IMG/VR virus record: IMGVR_UViG_3300033182_000769
Span: 32,001-96,000 of that record
Source of the DNA: a virus
Length of the DNA: 64,000 nt
Reading direction: 5' to 3' (one strand)
In this document: positions 3,001-43,123 of the stretch, piece by piece
Layout: each line of letters begins with the position of its first letter
Numbering within the stretch: position 1 is the stretch's first letter
The notes under the pieces: generated by a model
The model's database searches: none
What the model saw: only the letters and a program-made list of their open reading frames with translations
What the model was told of the DNA's origin: nothing
Translations under genes and position numbers: made by a program

Positions 3001-6000
3001 TCATAACCTTTATTATCTAACCAGAACTTCCAAGGATAATTATTAATCTCATCATTCTTCTGTGTTACAGGAATCACTGCGCCTACAGACTCAAGATATG
3101 CAGGAGGTAGATCAAAATCACTAAATGCTGTTGGAATGTCTGCTACATCTTCGTACTTACTTGTATATTTTCTAATACTCGTTCTGTACGGTTTAACCTC
3201 TTCAATGTACTGTCTAAAATAATCAAGCCCGTCGCTCTTATAATTTGTTCTGCGACAGAAACAACCAACTGTGTGGGTTGCATTTAAGAAACTTGTTTTA
3301 AATACCCAATCAATATATGTCTGTTCTGCTAATGCATATCGAATTGATGTAAAGAATAACTCATTCCACTTGATTTCGTATTCGTGTAAGAACACATCCT
3401 CTTTAAGTGCCGCTAAAAGAAAACGTAATTCTTTTGAATTCTCAATATCATACAACCCTGTATCAAACGACTTTGCATTATCGTAACCAATACCAGACAA
3501 TGACGAATCGTAAATTGCCGGAAGTATTTCAATAGTTCCTTGATATCGTCCGACTAACGAATAATTATCAAACGGTGTAGTTGGCGATTCTGCAATTTTT
3601 TCAAATACTGCCCATCCACCTGCGCCATATTCTTTAATTTTAATCAAATCACCAACTTTGGTCTTAATTTTGGCTTCATCTGATACAAACATTAATTCCT
3701 TTGTAATACGAGAAGAATTGTTGTAGCCGGCTTTCCACCAATCTTTAAACTGCCAGTATCGTGTAGTATCGTATGCTTGTGAACGTGTCCTATAAAACGT
3801 TTGTCTTGCTGAATCCCAAGCATAAATTCCCCAAAAACCATTTGAGTTTTCGTCTGCTTCAACAAGAACGCTAAACGGTCTTACTTTTGCTCTTGCTACA
3901 GAGTATTTTTTACCGGATGTTATCACAGTTACGCTATTAATTCTTCCTTGATTGTCAATAGTTAACTCTGCAGACGCTCCTGAACCATCACCTTCCCACT
4001 CGATCTGAGGTGCAACTTTGTATCCATATCCAGGATTAATAATATCAATGCTGGTTACTGCACCATCAATAATATTAACTCTTAAAATTGCTTGTCTAAC
4101 ACGAGTTGTACCAACAGTTTGTAAATCAATATAAGACGGGACAACCGTATCATAATTTCTCAATAACGGGTCTGGTGCTTGTTCTACCTGATTTAAATTA
4201 TCAAAACTAATAGTATTTGCAAACGGCTGCTCCATTAATATTACATTAACCTTATCAACAAGCATTTCTAACAATGGCAGTCGATTAACAAACATACTTT
4301 GTCTTGGTCTAAAGGCTAACCCATATTTTTGTTTGGCAGGTAAGTATGGATCTGGTACTGTATTGCCTTCTTTATCGTAACCGGCTAAACTATCAATCCA
4401 TTTTTCTTCTAATTTACCAGTAGGTCTGCTTTCTGCAATGCCTTCAGTTAATAACTGATACTCGTTATGAATATTATTTTCCGATTCTATATTCTTATAC
4501 AATTGAATATTCAATAACGCGGTATCATTCTGCATAATAGAATTAATATTGTAAGTAAAAATCTTATCGCTATCTGCTAATACTGCAAATACATAACCTT
4601 GGCCTGCAGGATCATTAATAGCATTTGCCACCTGAGCTGCGGATATTCTGCGACCTACAACGTCTTGAGGTACTACTACGGTGTTCTTAACCCAATAGTA
4701 GTACATTCTACCAATTACTGCTCCTGTTTGAGGATTATACGTCTCTTTAACACTATAAACAATATTATCAATATTTTTTGGCGTTCCTGAAATTCCTTCT
4801 GCTAAACCTTCAGTAATGTCAGCAAGCCCGTACCACTCGCTTGGTAATAGAGGAGACTCAACCCACTCGTAAACGTCAATGACTGAGCCTTCGGCCTGTG
4901 TATTCCAATTACCTAATCTATAAGACAAATCGCCTTGTTCGTAATGTAGCCATTTAACAGTGCTTAAATCCCACCATAACTGACCAACATTTTTAGTTGT
5001 CCATGCAGTGTCTGCATCAACATTTACATCGTCAGTTCCAACTGTATAAGTTGCTGGGTCGTACGGTGTCTGGAATCGTATTTCTTGATCTGCTGCTCGA
5101 AGAATACGCATTTTAACAGGATCTATTATTTCAATGTCTTGTATTTTAATGTTATCTACGTTATCATACAATTCAATACTCTTAATTTTATCAATCCAAA
5201 CAAGCGGCTTCTTGCTTTCCATAGTAGCCCACGAGTTAACTGTTAAACTCTTCTTAAATGTTCTTACGGTACCTGTTTCGGAGCCATACTCGAGTACATT
5301 TTCGTCATCTCTATCTCTGTAAGTAGGAGAGCCTACTGCAATTACGGAGTCTGAGCAATCAACACTCCATCCGAATGATTCATTAAGGCTGAGGTTGTCT
5401 TCTAATTTTTCAGTTAAGAAATACTTATTTCCACGTAACTCAAATACATAAACACTTCCAGCAAAGCCAGCCTCACTAATAAACGATGTTCTCTCTTCGT
5501 CGAATGAGGTATTAAACCCATCAAAGCGTGTTATTGATGTGTAAGGAGTATTGTTCGCTCCAATAACAATCCTACCCGACGTTGGGCTAATAGAAACACT
5601 TTGTCCAAAATACTCGCTTGGGAACTGTTCGTAACTTTCAATCTTTTGTTTTAGTCTAAACTGCATAAACGAACTATCTGATTCGTATTTAAAGATGTAT
5701 GCAGAGCCTTGATTTTGATAGTTAATATCTGCTTTAGGACTTGAAACAATAAACGTTGTTCCAGAAAAGTCGATATCTAACGAATGTCCAAATCTATCAC
5801 CTGAGTTTATTGATTCTCCTTCTACATCGCTAATATCATCTAAACTATCAGTAGTAATAGTTTGTTCTAACGCATAGAATCCAAAATCGTTACGTCTATA
5901 AACAAAAACTTTACCTGCTTCTACTCTTGTACTATCGCCAATCTCCTCCCAAGGCATTCCGCCCGGCTCTTGATTATAACTTGTTGCTACGCCTTCGGAT

Positions 6001-25462: not shown

Positions 25463-27234
25463 TCAAAATTAAGAATTTAACCGTAAAAAACTTTATGAGC
25501 GTGGGCAATCAAACTCAGGCCATTGACTTTGATAGAGGACATTTAACTCTTGTTTTAGGCGAGAATTTAGATTTAGGCGGAGATGACAGCGGTAGCCGTA
25601 ATGGCACTGGTAAAACTACAATCATCAATAGTTTAAGTTACGCAATATACGGTCAAGCACTTACAAACATTAAGCGTGATAATCTTGTCAACAAGATTAA
25701 CAACAAAGCAATGCTTGTTACTTGTACTTTTGAAAAAGACGGTGTTGAATATCATATTGAACGCGGTCGTAAACCTAATACACTTAATTTGTACATTAAC
25801 GGCCAGGAACAAGAAAATGACGATAGTGAAAGTCAGGGCGATAGTAGAGAAACACAGAAAGAAATTGAACAAATCTTTGGCATGAGCCATGATATGTTTA
25901 AACATTTAGTTGCCTTAAACACTTACACAGAACCATTTTTAAGTATGCGAGCAAATGATCAACGTATGATTATCGAACAGTTGCTTGGTATTACTATGCT
26001 GTCTGAAAAAGCAGACAACTTAAAAGAGCAAATTAAGCAAACAAAAGATGCTATTACTACAGAAAACACTCGCATCGAAACAATTAAAGCAAGTAATGAC
26101 AGAATTTCAGAAAGCATTGCTGGTTTAGAACGTAAGCAATCCTTATGGAAAACAACAAAAGAGAAATCAATCTTAGATTTACAAAAAGCAATTAAAGCCT
26201 TAGAGGCTATCAACATTGATGCAGAGATTGATGCTCACAGATGTTTAGATGATTACAACGAAAAGAAAAAACTAATTACCGAAGCGCAACGTTGGATTGC
26301 CAGCATTGAGGCAGATAACACAAAACAAGAAAATACTATTGCAAAATTAGATAAAGAGATTGCATTATTAAAAGAACACAAGTGTCATACTTGTGGACAA
26401 GAACTGCACGACCAGCAACAAGAAGAAATTTTAAAAAGTAAAGACGAACAAAAACAAGAAGCCGCATTACAACTTCTTGCTAATGAAACACAATGGCAAG
26501 AGCACACTGATGTTATTTCAAAGATTGGTGAATTAGAGCCATGTCCTGCTACTCAATACGACACACTCGAAGAAGCACTCAATCATCGCAGCACATTAGA
26601 AAGTTTACAAAAAGAAATTGAAACAAAACAATCAGAAACTAATCCTTATACAGAACAAATTGAAGAATTAAAAGAAAGCGCCATTCAAGAAGTTAGTTGG
26701 GATACTGTAAACGAACTTACTCGTGTTAAAGAACACCAAGACTTCTTGTTAAAACTGCTTACAAACAAAGATTCATTTGTACGTAAACGTATTATTGATC
26801 AGAACTTAGCATTCTTAAATCAGCGTTTAACGTATTACTTGGCAAAGATCGGTTTGCCACATATAGTGGAGTTTAATAATGATTTAACTGTGATAATTAC
26901 ACAGTTAGGTCAAGATTTAGACTTCGATAATCTATCAAGAGGGGAACGAAACAGACTCGTTTTAGCAATGAGTTGGGCATTCCGTGATGTATGGGAGAAT
27001 CTATATCAAAGCATTAACCTCTTATTCATTGACGAATTAGTCGACAGCGGTATGGATAGTGCCGGCGTTGAAAGTGCCATTGCGGTACTTAAAAAGATGA
27101 CTCGTGAAAGAGAGAAGAATGTTTTCTTAATTTCACACAAAGACGAGTTAATCAGTCGTGTAAACCAAGTTCTAAAAGTTATTAAGGAAAATGGTTTTAC
27201 AAATTATAGTACGGATGTAGAAATTTTGGAATGA
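25459..27234 (+). CDS. gp46: Recombination endonuclease ATPase subunit gp46 (Rad50/SbcC)
   Basis: KNFMSVG, Walker A GSRNGTGKT, coiled coil with zinc hook CHTCG, ABC signature LSRGE, Walker B LFIDE and the ISH switch. Confidence 0.93.
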   Translation: MIKIKNLTVKNFMSVGNQTQAIDFDRGHLTLVLGENLDLGGDDSGSRNGTGKTTIINSLSYAIYGQALTNIKRDNLVNKINNKAMLVTCTFEKDGVEYHIERGRKPNTLNLYINGQEQENDDSESQGDSRETQKEIEQIFGMSHDMFKHLVALNTYTEPFLSMRANDQRMIIEQLLGITMLSEKADNLKEQIKQTKDAITTENTRIETIKASNDRISESIAGLERKQSLWKTTKEKSILDLQKAIKALEAINIDAEIDAHRCLDDYNEKKKLITEAQRWIASIEADNTKQENTIAKLDKEIALLKEHKCHTCGQELHDQQQEEILKSKDEQKQEAALQLLANETQWQEHTDVISKIGELEPCPATQYDTLEEALNHRSTLESLQKEIETKQSETNPYTEQIEELKESAIQEVSWDTVNELTRVKEHQDFLLKLLTNKDSFVRKRIIDQNLAFLNQRLTYYLAKIGLPHIVEFNNDLTVIITQLGQDLDFDNLSRGERNRLVLAMSWAFRDVWENLYQSINLLFIDELVDSGMDSAGVESAIAVLKKMTREREKNVFLISHKDELISRVNQVLKVIKENGFTNYSTDVEILE

Positions 27235-27458
27235 GCACTGAATCGCACGACGAAATGATCCATGCATTCCAAGAATATTTTAAATGGCAGGATCGATTTG
27301 AGTACCATGGCTCGGATGAGGCAGGTATTAAAGCACGATTTTGGCTCAGCGAAATACGAAATCAGGCGAGTATCAGGCGAGTAGAAATACAAGAAAAACG
27401 TAAGGCAAGAAAAGCAGCCAGAAAAGGCATGGTAGGGAGACCAAAAAAGCATAACTAA
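27231..27458 (+). CDS. Small basic protein, Hc1 (histone H1-like) pattern, with a C-terminal AT-hook-like GRPKK
   Basis: FEYHGSDEAGIKARFWLSEIRNQASIRRVEIQEKRK resembles the Hc1-like G.K.AG.RAR..L.E motif. Start overlaps the gp46 stop (ATGA). Confidence 0.55.
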   Translation: MSTESHDEMIHAFQEYFKWQDRFEYHGSDEAGIKARFWLSEIRNQASIRRVEIQEKRKARKAARKGMVGRPKKHN

Positions 27459-27465
27459 TAGCGTT

Positions 27466-27921
27466 ATGCATTGGACCCACGAAGGCAAAATAGTAGACTC
27501 GATTTCCGACGAATACGAAGGTTTCGTCTATCTCATAACAAATCTAAAAACCGGGCAAAAATATATAGGCAAAAAACTTGCTAAATTTAAAACTACTAAA
27601 CCACCACTCAAAGGACGAAAAAACAAACGTCGAGGCACAAAAGAAAGCGATTGGAAAACCTATTGGGGTTCTTCAGATCGTTTAAACGCAGATGTCCAAG
27701 CATTAGGCCCGGAAAACTTTACCAGAGAAATACTTTATTTTTGCAAAAACAAGGCAGAGATGTCCTACATAGAGGCAAGAGAACAGTTTGACCGCCGTGT
27801 ATTAGAAACAGATGATTATTATAACGGTATTATAGCAGTGAAAGTAGGCGGTTCAGATAAACTTAGAAAAGCACTTTTAGAACAATCAATCAAACAAAAG
27901 GCAAAAAACACTACCAAATAA
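27466..27921 (+). CDS. GIY-YIG nuclease (T4 endonuclease II/DenA- or Seg-like), 151 aa
   Basis: GFVYLITNLKTGQKYIGKK (GIY...YIG), DWKTYWGSS, FTREIL, conserved E in IEAREQF, and YYNGII. Confidence 0.85.
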   Translation: MHWTHEGKIVDSISDEYEGFVYLITNLKTGQKYIGKKLAKFKTTKPPLKGRKNKRRGTKESDWKTYWGSSDRLNADVQALGPENFTREILYFCKNKAEMSYIEAREQFDRRVLETDDYYNGIIAVKVGGSDKLRKALLEQSIKQKAKNTTK

Positions 27922-28482
27922 GCCCGCACCGGCGCAGTTATGGTGCCCTGAATCCCTTCTGATGTGAGAGGGTAAGGAATCTGGTTGGTAGCAGAGAACT
28001 CAGCCACTACCCGTAATGGATGAGGATCGCTTAAACCCTGCGATTTGGCTGTTTGATAGGAATGTTAAAAGGTAAAAAGAGAGTAGAGAATACTCAGGCT
28101 TATTATAGAAGTCAGCGTTTTTATAATAAGTTGCCGTTGTACGTAAGATACGAGGACGGGTTGAGCAGGTAACGGACAACCGCCTGCGCAATGTGCAATA
28201 ATTTGCACATTATAGTACAAAAAGTACATTAATGTGCATATTTTTGCACATTATAGACCTAACGCTGTTGTGAACTGGGGAACACAGATAATGTTCAAAA
28301 CCCTTTGAGCCCGGCAACGGGCTTATTGTGACTGAAGAATCAAGATAATGCTAAAACTGCTTCGCAGTTAATATTTCTCCCACATAAAACATTTCACATC
28401 TTGCACATCTTGCTAATTATTAGAGAAGAGAAAGTGGCGCTTGAGCAAAGCGAAAAGCGCAAGCGAGCTTTAGCTCGCTTTT
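27922..28482 (+). ncRNA. Candidate large structured ncRNA (~560 nt) of unassigned class
   Basis: Largest non-coding gap in the window, with more than 12 helices. Features include GNRA loops (GCAA, GTAA), a 7-bp loop-to-distal pairing (CAGCGTT 28113-28119 / AACGCTG 28261-28267) and a terminal hairpin followed by Ts. Confidence 0.65.
28190..28256. repeat. Two 26-nt palindromic direct repeats, AATGTGCA-N6-TGCACATTATAG, period 41 nt
   Basis: 28190-28215 and 28231-28256 are 22/26 identical, with all differences in the loop. Confidence 0.9.
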
Positions 28483-28484
28483 AA
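28461..28484 (+). terminator. Hairpin AAGCGAGC-TTTA-GCTCGCTT with a short T run; probable 3' end of the gp47-gp46-GIY-YIG-RNA transcript
   Basis: Perfect 8-bp stem immediately before the next late promoter. The U-tract is short. Confidence 0.5.
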
Positions 28485-28485
28485 A

Positions 28486-28492
28486 ATAAATA
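28486..28492 (+). promoter_or_regulatory. Late promoter ATAAATA
   Basis: 27 nt upstream of ATG 28519, with an AGGA RBS. Confidence 0.65.
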
Positions 28493-28518
28493 ACACATAT
28501 GTTAGGAACACTTTAATA

Positions 28519-29895: not shown

Positions 29896-31931
29896 TGAGA
29901 ATTACAAACGTTACAGAACAAGTTTTAACAGAGCAAATGATTGCAGAACGTTTTGTTAAAGACATTGAGCATTATGTTATTGAAGCAAACTTAACTGCTG
30001 ATCAAATTAACGATATTTTTACAGCCGCTGAAACAGGCCAAACAAACGCAGGCAATAATAGAACCGCAATCGGCAAAGGTAAAGACGCAGCAGACTTTAT
30101 TAATAACAAAATGAAAGAGTTAACCAAAGCAGTGGCTAACTCGGGTCCAGTACAAAACATGGATCAAAAGTTTGAAGAACTAAAAACAAAAATTACAGCA
30201 GAAAATCCAAAAGTAGCAGGAGCAATTCAGCAAGTAAGCGACTGGGCAAAAGCAAACCCCGGTAAGGCTTCAATTGCGGTTATGATATTAACTACTGCCG
30301 CCGGTATGGTAGGCGGACCACTCGGTGGTGCTATTGGTGGTTTCCTTGCAAGAGCAACTAAAGACCTACTAAAAGGCGACAAACTTTCAACAGCAGTTGG
30401 TAAGAGTGCTAAGACAGCAATGATTGGTGCGTTAATTGGTATGGCATCAGACTACATCGCTAAAGATGAAATTGAAGCAATTGCTACTGCCGGTAACGAT
30501 GAGATTGCTGACATTAAAGCAGCGATGTCAGACGCAAACTTTGGCGATGCTGTTGATAATATGCCACCTGATCTAAAGGCAGCATGGGAAGCAAATCCTA
30601 ATTTAGATCTTTATGATACAACCTACCGTCAAAGTATTACATTTGGCACAGGGTATGGTGCAAGTTACGACGGTGTACTAATGCCTGATCAAAAAGATAT
30701 GTTGTATTCGCTAAGTAAAACAATGGATGCAGCATGGGATGTTGATCCATTCAGTGTTGAAACACGCCAGGCAGCAATTAAGTATGTCGAATATCTTCGT
30801 AGTTTAAAAGATACAAACGCAACATTAAATGATGTGTCGGGTTGGTTGGCAGGTGCTAAAGATTTAACACCTGCACAATTGGAAATTGTAAGAACACACG
30901 AAGGTAGTTTAAAAAGTCTTGTTGACAACTTGAAAGCAGCATCAGATGCAGGTAGTGCGGCAGCACAAGGTGTTGCCACTGGAGCACTTGGTAATAAAAA
31001 GAAACCACAAGAAAGTTTTGTACCAGGTAAGAAACTATCAGAAGGACAAATCTACTTATTATTCAAAAGGTTAGCAACGGTAAACCAACAATGGTTAGAC
31101 GAAGGTATTATTTTTGAAAGTGTATTTGATGCTGTTAGAAAACAACAAATAAATGAAGAAGATTGGTTAGATACAATTAAAAAGACTGTAGGCGGTACAA
31201 TATCAAATATTAAAACAGCACGAGATATTGCACCTGACTGGGATGCTGCAATAAAAAGTAAAGACCCTGCACAAATCGAAAAAGGCATTTCTAACATGGC
31301 CGATAAGATGGGTATAGATAAAAATGATCCGGGATACAAAAACTGGGCAGGCAGCCAGAGATATAAAGCATATAAAGCCGCTGACATTATGCACGACGTA
31401 ACAAGTGCAGCCGAAAAGAAAGTTGCCCCAATGTCTACTATAGAAGTACCTGGAGTAAAAGACGACGAGTGGGTTAAATTTGGTGAACATTCTATTGAAG
31501 AAGGTCCTATGGACGCTATCAAAAAAGGTGTTGGTGCAGTTAAAGGTGCAGTCAAAGGAGCGGCAGGATTTGTCGGAGACAAATTAAAAACAGCAGGAAA
31601 AAATTTAACTACTAAAGTTACCGCTGACAAATTAAAGAAAGCATGGAAGAAAGCAGGATCTCCAACAGATTCAAATGCTGTTGCTGCTATTTTAGCACAA
31701 GCAGGTGTTAACGCAGAAGTTGTTAACACTGTTTATAAAGACATGGGTATTGAAGCACCTAAAGCCGTTCCGTCAAAACAACCTGCATCAGATGCACAAG
31801 GTGCAAGTGATACAGGTTCTCCACAAGGTTCAGAAGTAGCGAGCAGCGGAATTAATATTCAAGATTTGGCAGATACTATTAAACGTAAAGGTTATACTGC
31901 ACAGGTAAAAGCATATCTTGGCGCTGCTTAA
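29895..31931 (+). CDS. Hypothetical protein, putative internal/ejected head protein with a glycine-rich hydrophobic segment
   Basis: N-terminus MRITNVTEQVLTE, segment SIAVMILTTAAGMVGGPLGGAIGGFLA, and several hydrophobic-X-E sites. Confidence 0.6.
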   Translation: MRITNVTEQVLTEQMIAERFVKDIEHYVIEANLTADQINDIFTAAETGQTNAGNNRTAIGKGKDAADFINNKMKELTKAVANSGPVQNMDQKFEELKTKITAENPKVAGAIQQVSDWAKANPGKASIAVMILTTAAGMVGGPLGGAIGGFLARATKDLLKGDKLSTAVGKSAKTAMIGALIGMASDYIAKDEIEAIATAGNDEIADIKAAMSDANFGDAVDNMPPDLKAAWEANPNLDLYDTTYRQSITFGTGYGASYDGVLMPDQKDMLYSLSKTMDAAWDVDPFSVETRQAAIKYVEYLRSLKDTNATLNDVSGWLAGAKDLTPAQLEIVRTHEGSLKSLVDNLKAASDAGSAAAQGVATGALGNKKKPQESFVPGKKLSEGQIYLLFKRLATVNQQWLDEGIIFESVFDAVRKQQINEEDWLDTIKKTVGGTISNIKTARDIAPDWDAAIKSKDPAQIEKGISNMADKMGIDKNDPGYKNWAGSQRYKAYKAADIMHDVTSAAEKKVAPMSTIEVPGVKDDEWVKFGEHSIEEGPMDAIKKGVGAVKGAVKGAAGFVGDKLKTAGKNLTTKVTADKLKKAWKKAGSPTDSNAVAAILAQAGVNAEVVNTVYKDMGIEAPKAVPSKQPASDAQGASDTGSPQGSEVASSGINIQDLADTIKRKGYTAQVKAYLGAA

Positions 31932-32119
31932 AAGAACGGTAAGTTTGTTTTCTTAGTAGTTTCTATATTATCTTTAATAATCTCACCAATAATTTCTCTT
32001 TCCTCAAAACTCATATTCACAAGTTCACTGTAAGAAAGACCTCTCATGTACCAACACATTCTGAGTAATTCTTTCTTCAGTTCTCGTGCCTGTTTATCAA
32101 GTTTCTCGGTAAACTGCAA
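31928..32119 (-). CDS. gp51-like hub/tail assembly domain, probably expressed as a -1 frameshift extension of the gp26-like gene
   Basis: LLRMCWYMRGLSYSELVNMSFEEREII matches the gp51-like YS..E..NM...ER motif. The TTG start has no evident RBS, and the frame is open back to the slippery site. Confidence 0.65.
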   Translation of the reverse strand: MQFTEKLDKQARELKKELLRMCWYMRGLSYSELVNMSFEEREIIGEIIKDNIETTKKTNLPFF

Positions 32120-32161
32120 GATCTCCGGCGTTGAGAGGGTTAAGATCTTGCTGCGAAAAAA
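32116..32161 (-). promoter_or_regulatory. Putative programmed -1 ribosomal frameshift signal (T TTT TTC plus downstream stem-loop)
   Basis: Heptamer at 32161-32155 is in the gp26 frame. A 9-bp stem GCAAGATCT/AGATCTTGC (32151-32143 with 32124-32116) follows. Confidence 0.7.
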
Positions 32162-33003
32162 TTTGATTGATCTAAAGTAATATTGACGTCAAACTTACTA
32201 TGACATTCTGCACATTCAACTTGACGGATTTTAAAATCTAAATCTGTTTTCATTTGTTCTAAACGTCCGTAGATTGCATCAAAAATTTCTTTAGGTGCAT
32301 TACTAATAAATTCTTTAATTGTATTACTATCTTTTTCACTTCCTTCAGGAGTTTCAATTTCAGTAATACAACCTGCAATCATATCAATGCTTAATTCTGT
32401 TAGTTTAACAAAACTTGCACCAAATCGTTCAAGTTTCTCTTCGTCACTCATAGATTCACTATTCACAATGTCAAAGATTTTTTGTTGTTCGATATTCTTA
32501 ATTGCTGTTTTTGTAATTTCCCTATAGGAATATGGACGTATATGTACAGTAAGATCATCAATAACAATTGTATCTTTATAGTCAAATTGTGAGATATTAC
32601 CTAAGTAAGCAGTAAGACTTAAATTATATTCGTTTTCGTGTCCACAAGAAGTACAATTGGCCGTAACTTCTAACTCTTCGCCGTATGTTGCAATTCTAAT
32701 AGCAACAAGACACGCATCTAAGTCAATACTTGGCATCTTCCATGCATCTTTAATTGACGGAATACAACTTTGAATAACTTCAACAGTTGATTGGCCGCTC
32801 ATTAACGCATCTGGAGTTTTATACATCAATTCATCTTTAGCAGTCATAGCATAAACAGCATATTTCCCATCTTCAGAACGATCTAATGCTCCATCTGCAT
32901 AGAAGTTACCTTTACTTGGCAACTCTAAATATACTTTAGGCTGTCTATAGTACTTCTGTAAAACACTACCTTTTGGTTGTTCGGCAGTTTGATTTTGATC
33001 CAT
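32140..33003 (-). CDS. gp26: Baseplate hub assembly chaperone gp26-like
   Basis: PKVYLELPSKG, MTAKDE, IDLDACLVAIRIATYGEELEVTANCTSC, a second CxxC (CAEC) and a C-terminal NFF. Confidence 0.8.
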   Translation of the reverse strand: MDQNQTAEQPKGSVLQKYYRQPKVYLELPSKGNFYADGALDRSEDGKYAVYAMTAKDELMYKTPDALMSGQSTVEVIQSCIPSIKDAWKMPSIDLDACLVAIRIATYGEELEVTANCTSCGHENEYNLSLTAYLGNISQFDYKDTIVIDDLTVHIRPYSYREITKTAIKNIEQQKIFDIVNSESMSDEEKLERFGASFVKLTELSIDMIAGCITEIETPEGSEKDSNTIKEFISNAPKEIFDAIYGRLEQMKTDLDFKIRQVECAECHSKFDVNITLDQSNFFAARS

Positions 33004-42303: not shown

Positions 42304-42573
42304 ATGGAAATACGTAGCGACAAAGACTTTCCCGCTCTAAGACAGTATCTTAGAGATATGGCTATTCGTCATTCTATTTTCAAAAAAGATGTACAGAGAA
42401 TTGAAAAATCTATTGAAGATCATATAACACGTTATAGTAAGCATCTTGTAAAATATAGACAGACTAAAAGCGAGCGGTATGTTGAACATGCATACGTCGA
42501 AATAGATGAAATTAATAGAATATTAAAAACTGTAGAAAAGATCGAATTAATGGCATTGTTAAGTAGAAGATAA
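42304..42573 (+). CDS. Hypothetical protein (89 aa), probably a leaderless late gene
   Basis: TAAATA at 42293-42298, ATG 5 nt later, no RBS. Confidence 0.7.
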   Translation: MEIRSDKDFPALRQYLRDMAIRHSIFKKDVQRIEKSIEDHITRYSKHLVKYRQTKSERYVEHAYVEIDEINRILKTVEKIELMALLSRR

Positions 42574-42580: not shown

Positions 42581-42656
42581 GTCAGATAGTGTGCCGCAAC
42601 GGAGTGGCGGACTTATGGGGAATCCAACCCCGTAGCGGATAGAACCCGCATCGGAC
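42581..42656 (+). ncRNA. Candidate structured 5' leader (76-nt four-way junction)
   Basis: Closing stem GTCAGAT/ATCGGAC (6 of 7 pairs) encloses the hairpins CCGC/GCGG, TATGGGG/CCCCGTA and GCGG/CCGC. It is a GC-rich island directly before the RBS. Confidence 0.6.
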
Positions 42657-42676
42657 TTCTATTAAGGAGAAAACAA

Positions 42677-43123
42677 ATGGGAAGACCACTAAACAAGAGA
42701 TATTTCGGCGAACCTACTGCCGGAGGCAACGAAATTAAATGCGATTTTCACAACGGTACAGCAGTTGTTGAAGGTCATATTGTTCGTCAAAAAGGTAGCA
42801 AGAAATTTATTGTAGCAGAGATTGGCGCCGATGATACTGAGTATACTTGCTACTTAACTACTGGTAAATTAACTTCATCATTAGCCGCAGGCGAAATGGC
42901 TATTACAATGTTAATGGACGATAGTGAAACATACCAAGTTTCAAAAATCACCGGACGCAGAGCTACATTAATTGCTCCAGACGGTACAGGTTCAAACGCA
43001 TATGACGGACAGTCAGTGGCATGGAACTTTACAGTATCTGCTACTGATGGCGCAGCACAAGTTGAAGAGGCCGGTGACGACGATACTGCTGGCGTTGATG
43101 ACGACGATTTTGCTAATGCGTAA
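42677..43123 (+). CDS. Putative virion structural protein (MGRPLNKRYFG..., 148 aa)
   Basis: Strong AAGGAG RBS, late promoter, beta-rich sequence with an acidic tail, located after gp23. Confidence 0.65.
   Translation: MGRPLNKRYFGEPTAGGNEIKCDFHNGTAVVEGHIVRQKGSKKFIVAEIGADDTEYTCYLTTGKLTSSLAAGEMAITMLMDDSETYQVSKITGRRATLIAPDGTGSNAYDGQSVAWNFTVSATDGAAQVEEAGDDDTAGVDDDDFANA

Follow-up and report, generated by a model that had tools for sequence, protein, structure and literature searches.

The window analyzed here, a stretch of DNA 64,000 nucleotides in length, is part of a 160-kb virus record and belongs to a T4-like phage. Its gene order runs from gp55 through gp47, gp46, and a 75-aa basic ORF (27231..27458, plus strand) to the gene for a 151-aa GIY-YIG nuclease that comprises the catalytic domain only (27466..27921, plus strand; PF19835 SegE_GIY-YIG, phrog_447). 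The initial annotation had labeled the 75-aa ORF Hc1; searches of Pfam and PHROG gave no family match for it, and a homologue is found in the same slot of loci L223, L251, and L271. The gap 3′ of the nuclease gene, from 27922 to 28518 (~598 nt), is indeed the sole ORF-free stretch longer than 250 nt within the window, and it contains an RNA element that is adjacent to the nuclease gene, not fused to it as had been described.

Upstream of the GIY-YIG gene, the word ATAACTA (27451..27457, plus strand) could, judging by its motif, be a variant of TAAATA, the late promoter of the phage; a TAA-N-TA word precedes the ATG by 3-12 nt in 61 of 92 homologues. Transcription from this candidate promoter would yield a joint transcript of the GIY-YIG gene and the RNA. 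The right limit of the element is set by ATAAATA (28486..28492, plus strand), the late-promoter motif of the next gene. The gene in this downstream position varies among loci and has its own promoter motif. The window contains a second catalogued RNA, freshwater-2 (RF02980), at 42592-42679 on the plus strand (77 bits, cut-off 49.9), which lies behind an ATAAATA motif at 42570 and upstream of a 148-aa ORF. A 63-aa ORF with a TTG start (31928-32178, minus strand) follows the baseplate-hub gene, and its homologues recur in related loci. The GC skew, both cumulative and at fourfold sites, shifts at ~23.5 kb, where the gene strand also switches, and codon bias confounds it.

The initial annotation had proposed a new large ncRNA class. 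A scan against Rfam instead identified the 5′ domain of the element (27921-28054, plus strand) as Polynucleobacter-1 (RF01718), scoring 78.1 bits (cut-off 37; E 7.5e-15) and matching over the full model, positions 1-141. According to Weinberg et al. (2010, PMC2864571), most copies of this motif lie downstream of GOS11034 genes, and its 3′ half is not always detected; their Stockholm file includes a 7-bp pseudoknot between the loop of a long hairpin and a segment after a GGUACC hairpin. The window RNA has this same 3′ tail, i.e., the long hairpin, the GGUACC hairpin, and the pseudoknot, and the latter is the long-range pseudoknot described in the initial annotation. Moreover, the C-terminus of the window's GIY-YIG family (GOS11034) is encoded in the sequence that the 2010 file shows upstream of the motif. 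Because that file covers ~350 nt, the long-range pseudoknot, and the gene link, all three were already in print, and the claim of a new class fails. We conclude that the window RNA belongs to an already catalogued orphan family and has 3′ features that are unpublished. A survey of the literature on Polynucleobacter-1, on GIY-YIG proteins with RNA, on DUF6641, and on recent large phage RNAs, with subscription papers mostly outside its coverage, yielded nothing past the 2010 paper, and among isolate phages none was found to carry the element.

To define the fold, we gathered ~200 homologous loci, starting from either the protein or the RNA motif, and aligned 36 non-redundant sequences of the window's RNA type. 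All 13 arm pairs listed in the initial annotation are literally present at or beside their reported positions, and the window sequence folds more stably than its shuffles, with z = -5.4 for the plus strand and z = -4.0 for the minus strand. In the alignment, 93.2% of cells pair, and double changes are seen in 55 of 69 pairs. None of 500 shuffles reaches the observed level, and slid controls give 35-40%; these controls lean in the structure's favor, because the structure was derived from the same alignment. The covarying helices contain many G-U and almost no A-C combinations on the plus strand (in the long hairpin, 88 vs 0). Thus the plus strand is the folded one, as had been suspected from the G-T pairs.

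The covariation shows a predicted plus-strand RNA of ~430 nt with three pseudoknots. The first is a 3-bp mini-pseudoknot in the 5′ domain (27922-27924 with 27931-27933). The second structural unit, drawn in the 2010 supplement, comprises a short and a long hairpin (28081..28130); the loop of the latter (28113-28118) provides the 5′ strand of the long-range pseudoknot, whose 3′ strand lies at 28261..28267, where the motif ends as delimited in 2010. This pseudoknot holds over 6 bp (28113-28118 with 28262-28267), with at least one double change in each pair. Between these strands is an invariant core (28134..28186), in which conservation does not support two of the previously listed pairings, CCGT/ACGG and the CGG-ACAA-CCG inner hairpin. 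Mutual information replaces them with a second pseudoknot, 28136-28140 with 28176-28180, which is 100% paired with double changes in 3 of 5 pairs, and with a covarying helix, 28159-28162 with 28256-28259. Both are absent in this form from the initial annotation and from the drawing of 2010. The core also includes a helix between 28167-28169 and 28183-28185. The 28159-28162 helix encloses a lineage-specific AT-rich hairpin insert (28187..28255), which is only 3 nt long in most homologues. The proposed GAACA/TGTTC helix is likewise not conserved, and overlaps the first of the two boxes described below. An element of ~560 nt had been called RNA-like; this description holds for ~430 nt, while the last 130 nt have loops of the DNA type.

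Two sister types of the RNA, B and C, occur behind near-identical nuclease genes. Their 5′ parts are different and have no Rfam match, and they share the 3′ box region and the tail with the window's type. In locus L271 (~4800-5120, oriented) the whole Polynucleobacter-1 head is missing, with core, boxes, and tail kept; this copy is either a natural deletion or a misassembly. Among L001-L080, 30 of 80 loci end at most 614 nt past the GIY-YIG stop codon (2 to 614 nt), 11 of them at 109-150 nt. These ends are probably assembly breaks in a conserved RNA common to co-occurring phages.

The 3′ region carries a pair of identical 7-nt words. In the window, box 1 (28286..28292) and box 2 (28343..28349) both read AGATAAT on the plus strand; across the family the boxes are spaced by 44-63 nt, with a hairpin in between (28308..28323 on the plus strand in the window, with a GCAA loop). 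Box 1 equals box 2 in 197 of 201 distinct loci, with 18 different words, where 26 identical pairs would be expected if the boxes were independent; in this census, the flanks and part of the box positions were fixed by the search pattern, and the word AGCGAAA itself served to select the 19 loci that have it. On a parsimony tree built from the RNA body without the boxes, positions 1-5 require 24, 10, 9, 5, and 17 changes, and these counts are equal for box 1, for box 2, and for their joint state; errors in the tree and recombination would inflate the counts, not the coupling. The census and the tree together show that the two boxes must stay identical.

What enforces this identity? No third segment complementary to both boxes was found between -1500 and +1100 nt, no GIY-YIG residue predicts the box word, and no protein-coded word specificity was found in DUF6641, a family encoded in bacterial islands that also carry the RNA. 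Indeed, two island copies have RNAs that are 97% alike and DUF6641 proteins identical over 120 aa, and yet differ in both boxes. Beside the boxes, the window shows a double change, ACAC/ATCA against ACTC/ATCT, in which identity is kept in a register slipped by one base, as base pairing would keep it. The simplest account based on base pairing is that box 1, as RNA, would pair with the template strand opposite box 2. Pairing between the repeats of the Box C/D or TIGR-like kind was considered and rejected, as no covariation was found.

Other properties of the boxes bear on this account to varying degrees. The G/A combination, which an rG-dT wobble would permit, is absent at positions 1 and 5; thus, box identity is stricter than the stability of a simple hybrid needs. 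At position 8, G/A (126) prevails over A/G (2), which fits box 1 as the RNA side; this bias carries little weight, since the value of 0.91 is barely above the 0.86 expected from base composition. In folding ensembles box 1 and the sequence around it are unpaired to about the same degree (0.46 vs 0.45), and the sequence after box 2 gave no signal of an AT-rich unwinding element (66% AT, vs 62% in the genome). Three mosaic loci, L142, L047, and L005, switch lineage at box 2.

Downstream of box 2 the character of the element changes. GNA and GNYA loops are typical of stable DNA hairpins; about half of the tail loops are GNYA, and GNA triloops are frequent, whereas the hairpin between the boxes prefers GNRA (these loop counts are approximate). 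A hairpin at 28355..28369 on the minus strand has a cGAAg triloop of the DNA type, and a minus-strand GNA triloop is found here in 109 of 213 loci. The tail closes with a double hairpin (28437..28480, plus strand), for which the family consensus is GA-GC-GNNA-GC-GA followed by a hairpin with a GNA loop, plus-strand loops of the two being GNA or GNYA; the window has the variant loop AAA. The double hairpin resembles the ssi/pas motif of ColE1 plasmids. In a ColE1-type plasmid, in which ori and ssi were placed partly on general grounds, there is a G6...G6 direct repeat, and GAGCGCAGCGAG lies ~110 nt beyond the origin, on the same strand as RNA II. The short CACAT-containing repeats that precede the terminal hairpins in the window (28383-28413) are shared with L017 only and are not conserved in the family.

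Copies of the RNA are also found outside phages. In the 2010 file, a chromosomal copy from Polynucleobacter has AGCGAAA in both boxes, and a pattern with this word finds 22 loci in bacterial genome assemblies, a few of which resemble phage contigs inside bins. The islands that we examined are ~10 kb in size, and two are bounded by att repeats of 45-46 bp at a tRNA gene. Their genes encode tyrosine recombinases, an AAA ATPase, and DUF6641; no recognized Rep, primase, capsid, or terminase was detected among the island proteins scanned. Several of these proteins are unannotated and could be initiators; for two of them the ESM Atlas returned hypothetical clusters only. All 12 island copies with a full Rfam match have TAAATA 31-66 nt upstream (background 5.6%), as do two island copies found without the box word (14 of 14 in total), and the same motif precedes many genes of the window phage. 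Of the two copies found without the word, one has AGAGAAA in both boxes and the other has AACAAAA in both. One Polynucleobacter genome (G001:C1) carries two copies 18 kb apart, at 401229-401366 and 419563-419698, with AGCGAAA and AGAGAAA, respectively. These findings point to the islands being satellites, which we infer would express the RNA during the late transcription of a helper phage. Two further observations concern these loci. Proteins encoded at L341:7997-8473 and L342:13026-13457, both on the minus strand, start with MRINEI and MKMNEI like phage genes downstream of the RNA, and have no Pfam match. The alphaproteobacterial island copies L322, L335, and L336 have twin boxes and TAAATA and a different 5′ part with no Rfam match, i.e., they are a further subtype.

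The element consists of the Polynucleobacter-1 RNA in full length, followed by a DNA tail. Our preferred reading, to which we assign a probability of about 45%, is that it functions as a ColE1 RNA II-like pre-primer at an R-loop origin. In this model, the RNA would be made by late (gp55-type) transcription. Its folded body would present box 1, which would pair with the template strand opposite box 2 as the polymerase passes; the two copies would have to match for this reason. The pairing would nucleate a persistent R-loop, in which the RNA end would prime DNA synthesis, and the displaced plus strand would expose the GA-GC-GNNA-GC-GA and GNA-loop hairpins for the loading of helicase or primase. 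The small bacterial islands, carrying the same element, would be replicated upon infection by a helper phage. Several possible roles were listed in the initial annotation; among them the R-loop primer is best supported, by the identity of the boxes in 197 of 201 loci, whereas the ribozyme has found no support. A broader proposal is tentative: a widespread family of pseudoknotted, self-matching pre-primer RNAs could, under late transcription, provide giant T4-like phages of aquatic habitats with R-loop origins, initiator-less 10-kb bacterial islands could have captured such an origin so as to be replicated by the infecting phage, and the 7-nt twin box could be a reprogrammable code between an RNA and its own DNA.

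Several observations argue against the pre-primer reading. The boxes are rich in AT, where ColE1 has G-rich stretches; there is no wobble at the core positions, box 1 is not extra-unpaired, and an unwinding element was not detected; there is no sequence similarity to the ColE1 origin; the unannotated island proteins could be initiators; and the known T4 origins use middle promoters.

We therefore weighed other explanations for the same data. The RNA might be a scaffold or decoy that binds, through its boxes, two copies of one protein or of a trans-acting nucleic acid, for example as an RNA of morphogenesis or of the packaging motor, with the islands making it late to hijack or block the phage. 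The strict identity without wobble at core positions, the ornate fold with its multiple pseudoknots, the late-promoter motif in the islands, and the 44-63 nt spacing with a hairpin between the boxes would all suit such a role. We nonetheless consider it unlikely, as the word changes dozens of times, even between RNAs that are 97% identical and between two islands of one genome, no co-varying protein emerged from the two tested, GIY-YIG and DUF6641, and the minus-strand GNA hairpins would be left unexplained.

A different possibility retains the R-loop and changes its purpose; that is, it would mark a pac site, or a site of programmed recombination tied to late transcription, and the capsid-less islands would need packaging by their helper. 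T4 packaging is linked to late transcription, and the late promoter motif agrees with this idea, as do the lack of a capsid or terminase match in the islands, the position beside gp46/gp47 and a nuclease or resolvase, and the lineage switch of L142, L047, and L005 at box 2. Against it, the tail looks more like ssi/pas signals than like terminase sites, and the contigs break off anywhere from 2 to 614 nt past the stop codon. We regard a packaging or recombination site as quite unlikely.

The invariant core with nested pseudoknots might also belong to a ribozyme, a self-splicing element, or a cis-regulator, in which twin boxes would arise by local gene conversion, and local recombination is frequent. 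This explanation is improbable: no gene is split, an Rfam search to E 10 returned no intron or ribozyme family, the varying downstream gene has its own promoter motif, and conversion would not spare the fixed ACTC/ATCT difference beside the boxes. A group I intron with its homing endonuclease was rejected on similar grounds, in that the flanking ORFs are intact and independent and no intron family matches in Rfam.

The role of the adjacent nuclease is addressed by the comparison of loci. The model of the GIY-YIG protein is a bare catalytic domain whose basic insert is a predicted beta-hairpin; its best fold match is the I-TevI catalytic domain, at a weak E-value of 0.08, and a sequence search of the PDB gave no match. 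Its family, phrog_447, is one of GIY-YIG nucleases, yet both PHROGs and GenBank label it 'NAD synthetase'. As the initial annotation anticipated, the gene shows synteny with the RNA, which it directly precedes in 91 of ~105 RNA-first loci with enough flank (~90% of phage copies). In the others, ~5 have a gene in between, 3 a resolvase, and ~4 neither. The resolvase, a PD-(D/E)xK Holliday-junction enzyme, occupies the GIY-YIG slot in L213, L223, and L251, and in L251 the flanking genes are 73-77% identical to those of the window. None of the 22 loci from bacterial genome assemblies has a GIY-YIG match nearby. Neither the RNA type nor the box word clusters on the GIY-YIG protein tree; in L142, for instance, a type B RNA lies behind a protein 97% identical to those of type A neighbors. 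Four distant GIY-YIG homologues in isolated phages have no long gap downstream. A small Cys-containing ORF (GPH..K..C..CG.KF..WLPKG) with no Pfam match lies between the GIY-YIG gene and the type B RNA in L142 (836-1096) and L032 (~3450-3680).

These comparisons show that the RNA is evidently independent of the adjacent nuclease. That the RNA is instead a guide or RNP partner, with box 1 directing the nuclease to nick box 2 or a foreign target, as the initial annotation had suggested, is very improbable: the adjacency, the guide-like self-match, and the catalytic-only nuclease with its basic hairpin speak for it, and the resolvase swaps, the islands devoid of GIY-YIG, the intervening genes, the different RNA heads and cores over near-identical proteins, and the gapless distant homologues speak against it. 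The GIY-YIG protein is probably a structure-selective nuclease of the gp47-gp46 recombination operon, exchangeable with a junction resolvase; we infer that it is a neighbor of the RNA, not a partner.

Polynucleobacter-1 has been an orphan motif since 2010, and the covariation of the twin boxes opens its mechanism to a direct mutational test. Because cultured Polynucleobacter strains carry copies, such a test does not depend on an isolate of the phage. Were the origin model true, it would describe an RNA II-like origin outside the ColE1 plasmids, reveal how replication starts in an abundant group of uncultured phages, and define a type of satellite that parasitizes its phage via an RNA common to both. 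Even otherwise, the Rfam family grows from 141 to ~430 nt with the corrected full-length model and gains sister types that had not been catalogued.

How does the element compare with known systems? The Rfam model of Polynucleobacter-1 holds only the first 141 positions of a longer element. The 2010 motif stops before the twin boxes and is without the tail hairpins, its drawing has CGG/CCG where the window family has the second pseudoknot, and it was presented without the alternative heads (types B and C), the phage and island context, or a function. The second pseudoknot, the twin 7-nt boxes, the DNA-type tail hairpins, and the tRNA-integrated island copies behind a late-promoter motif were not found in print.

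GOLLD, ROOL, and OLE (PMC12286853) are likewise large, pseudoknotted, phage-associated RNAs with variable inserted stems, and differ from the window RNA in size and architecture; the earlier statement that the element is none of GOLLD, ROOL, and HEARO is borne out, as the Rfam models of GOLLD, ROOL, OLE, and HEARO do not match. OMEGA systems (HEARO/omegaRNA with IscB, TnpB) also have a structured RNA beside a compact nuclease gene. There, however, the RNA is obligately tied to the nuclease and has a variable guide of 15-20 nt aimed outside the RNA gene, whereas in the window family the link is not obligatory, the nuclease has a different fold and is exchangeable, and a word of only 7 nt matches its own locus. 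The satellites of E. coli (PMC10448857) have capsid genes and RepA, unlike the islands described here.

With the T4 origins oriF and oriG (PMC4412123), the proposed origin would share a T4-like phage and transcript-dependent R-loop priming. Those origins rely on a middle promoter, not a late one (PMC4412123), and on an unstructured unwinding element, in contrast to the structured RNA here, with no AT-rich element. In ColE1, priming depends on a hybrid between an rG stretch of RNA II and a dC stretch of the template (PMC4412123), helicase is loaded by way of the displaced strand (PMC5043065), and there is an ssi stem-loop (PMC5935869). RNA II, too, is a folded transcript of 450-550 nt, with a segment that is repeated downstream in the DNA, a GAGCG-N-AGCGA hairpin downstream on the same strand, and no recognized initiator protein. 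Profiles of the element gave no match to the ColE1-type origin of L344, with no sequence similarity. ColE1 has fixed G stretches ~230 nt apart and the window family AT-rich, variable boxes ~55 nt apart. A ColE1-type origin has its promoter several hundred nt ahead of the priming site; the 14 island copies have TAAATA upstream, and in the window the only such word is ATAACTA before the GIY-YIG gene. The family also differs in its phage late-promoter motif and its three pseudoknots, and no antisense RNA I was found, with no RNAI match in Rfam and with sigma-70-like sites for a candidate antisense RNA numbering 5 vs 4.3 by chance. In the proposed model, the element is ColE1-like in its mode of action, and is not a member of the RNA II family.
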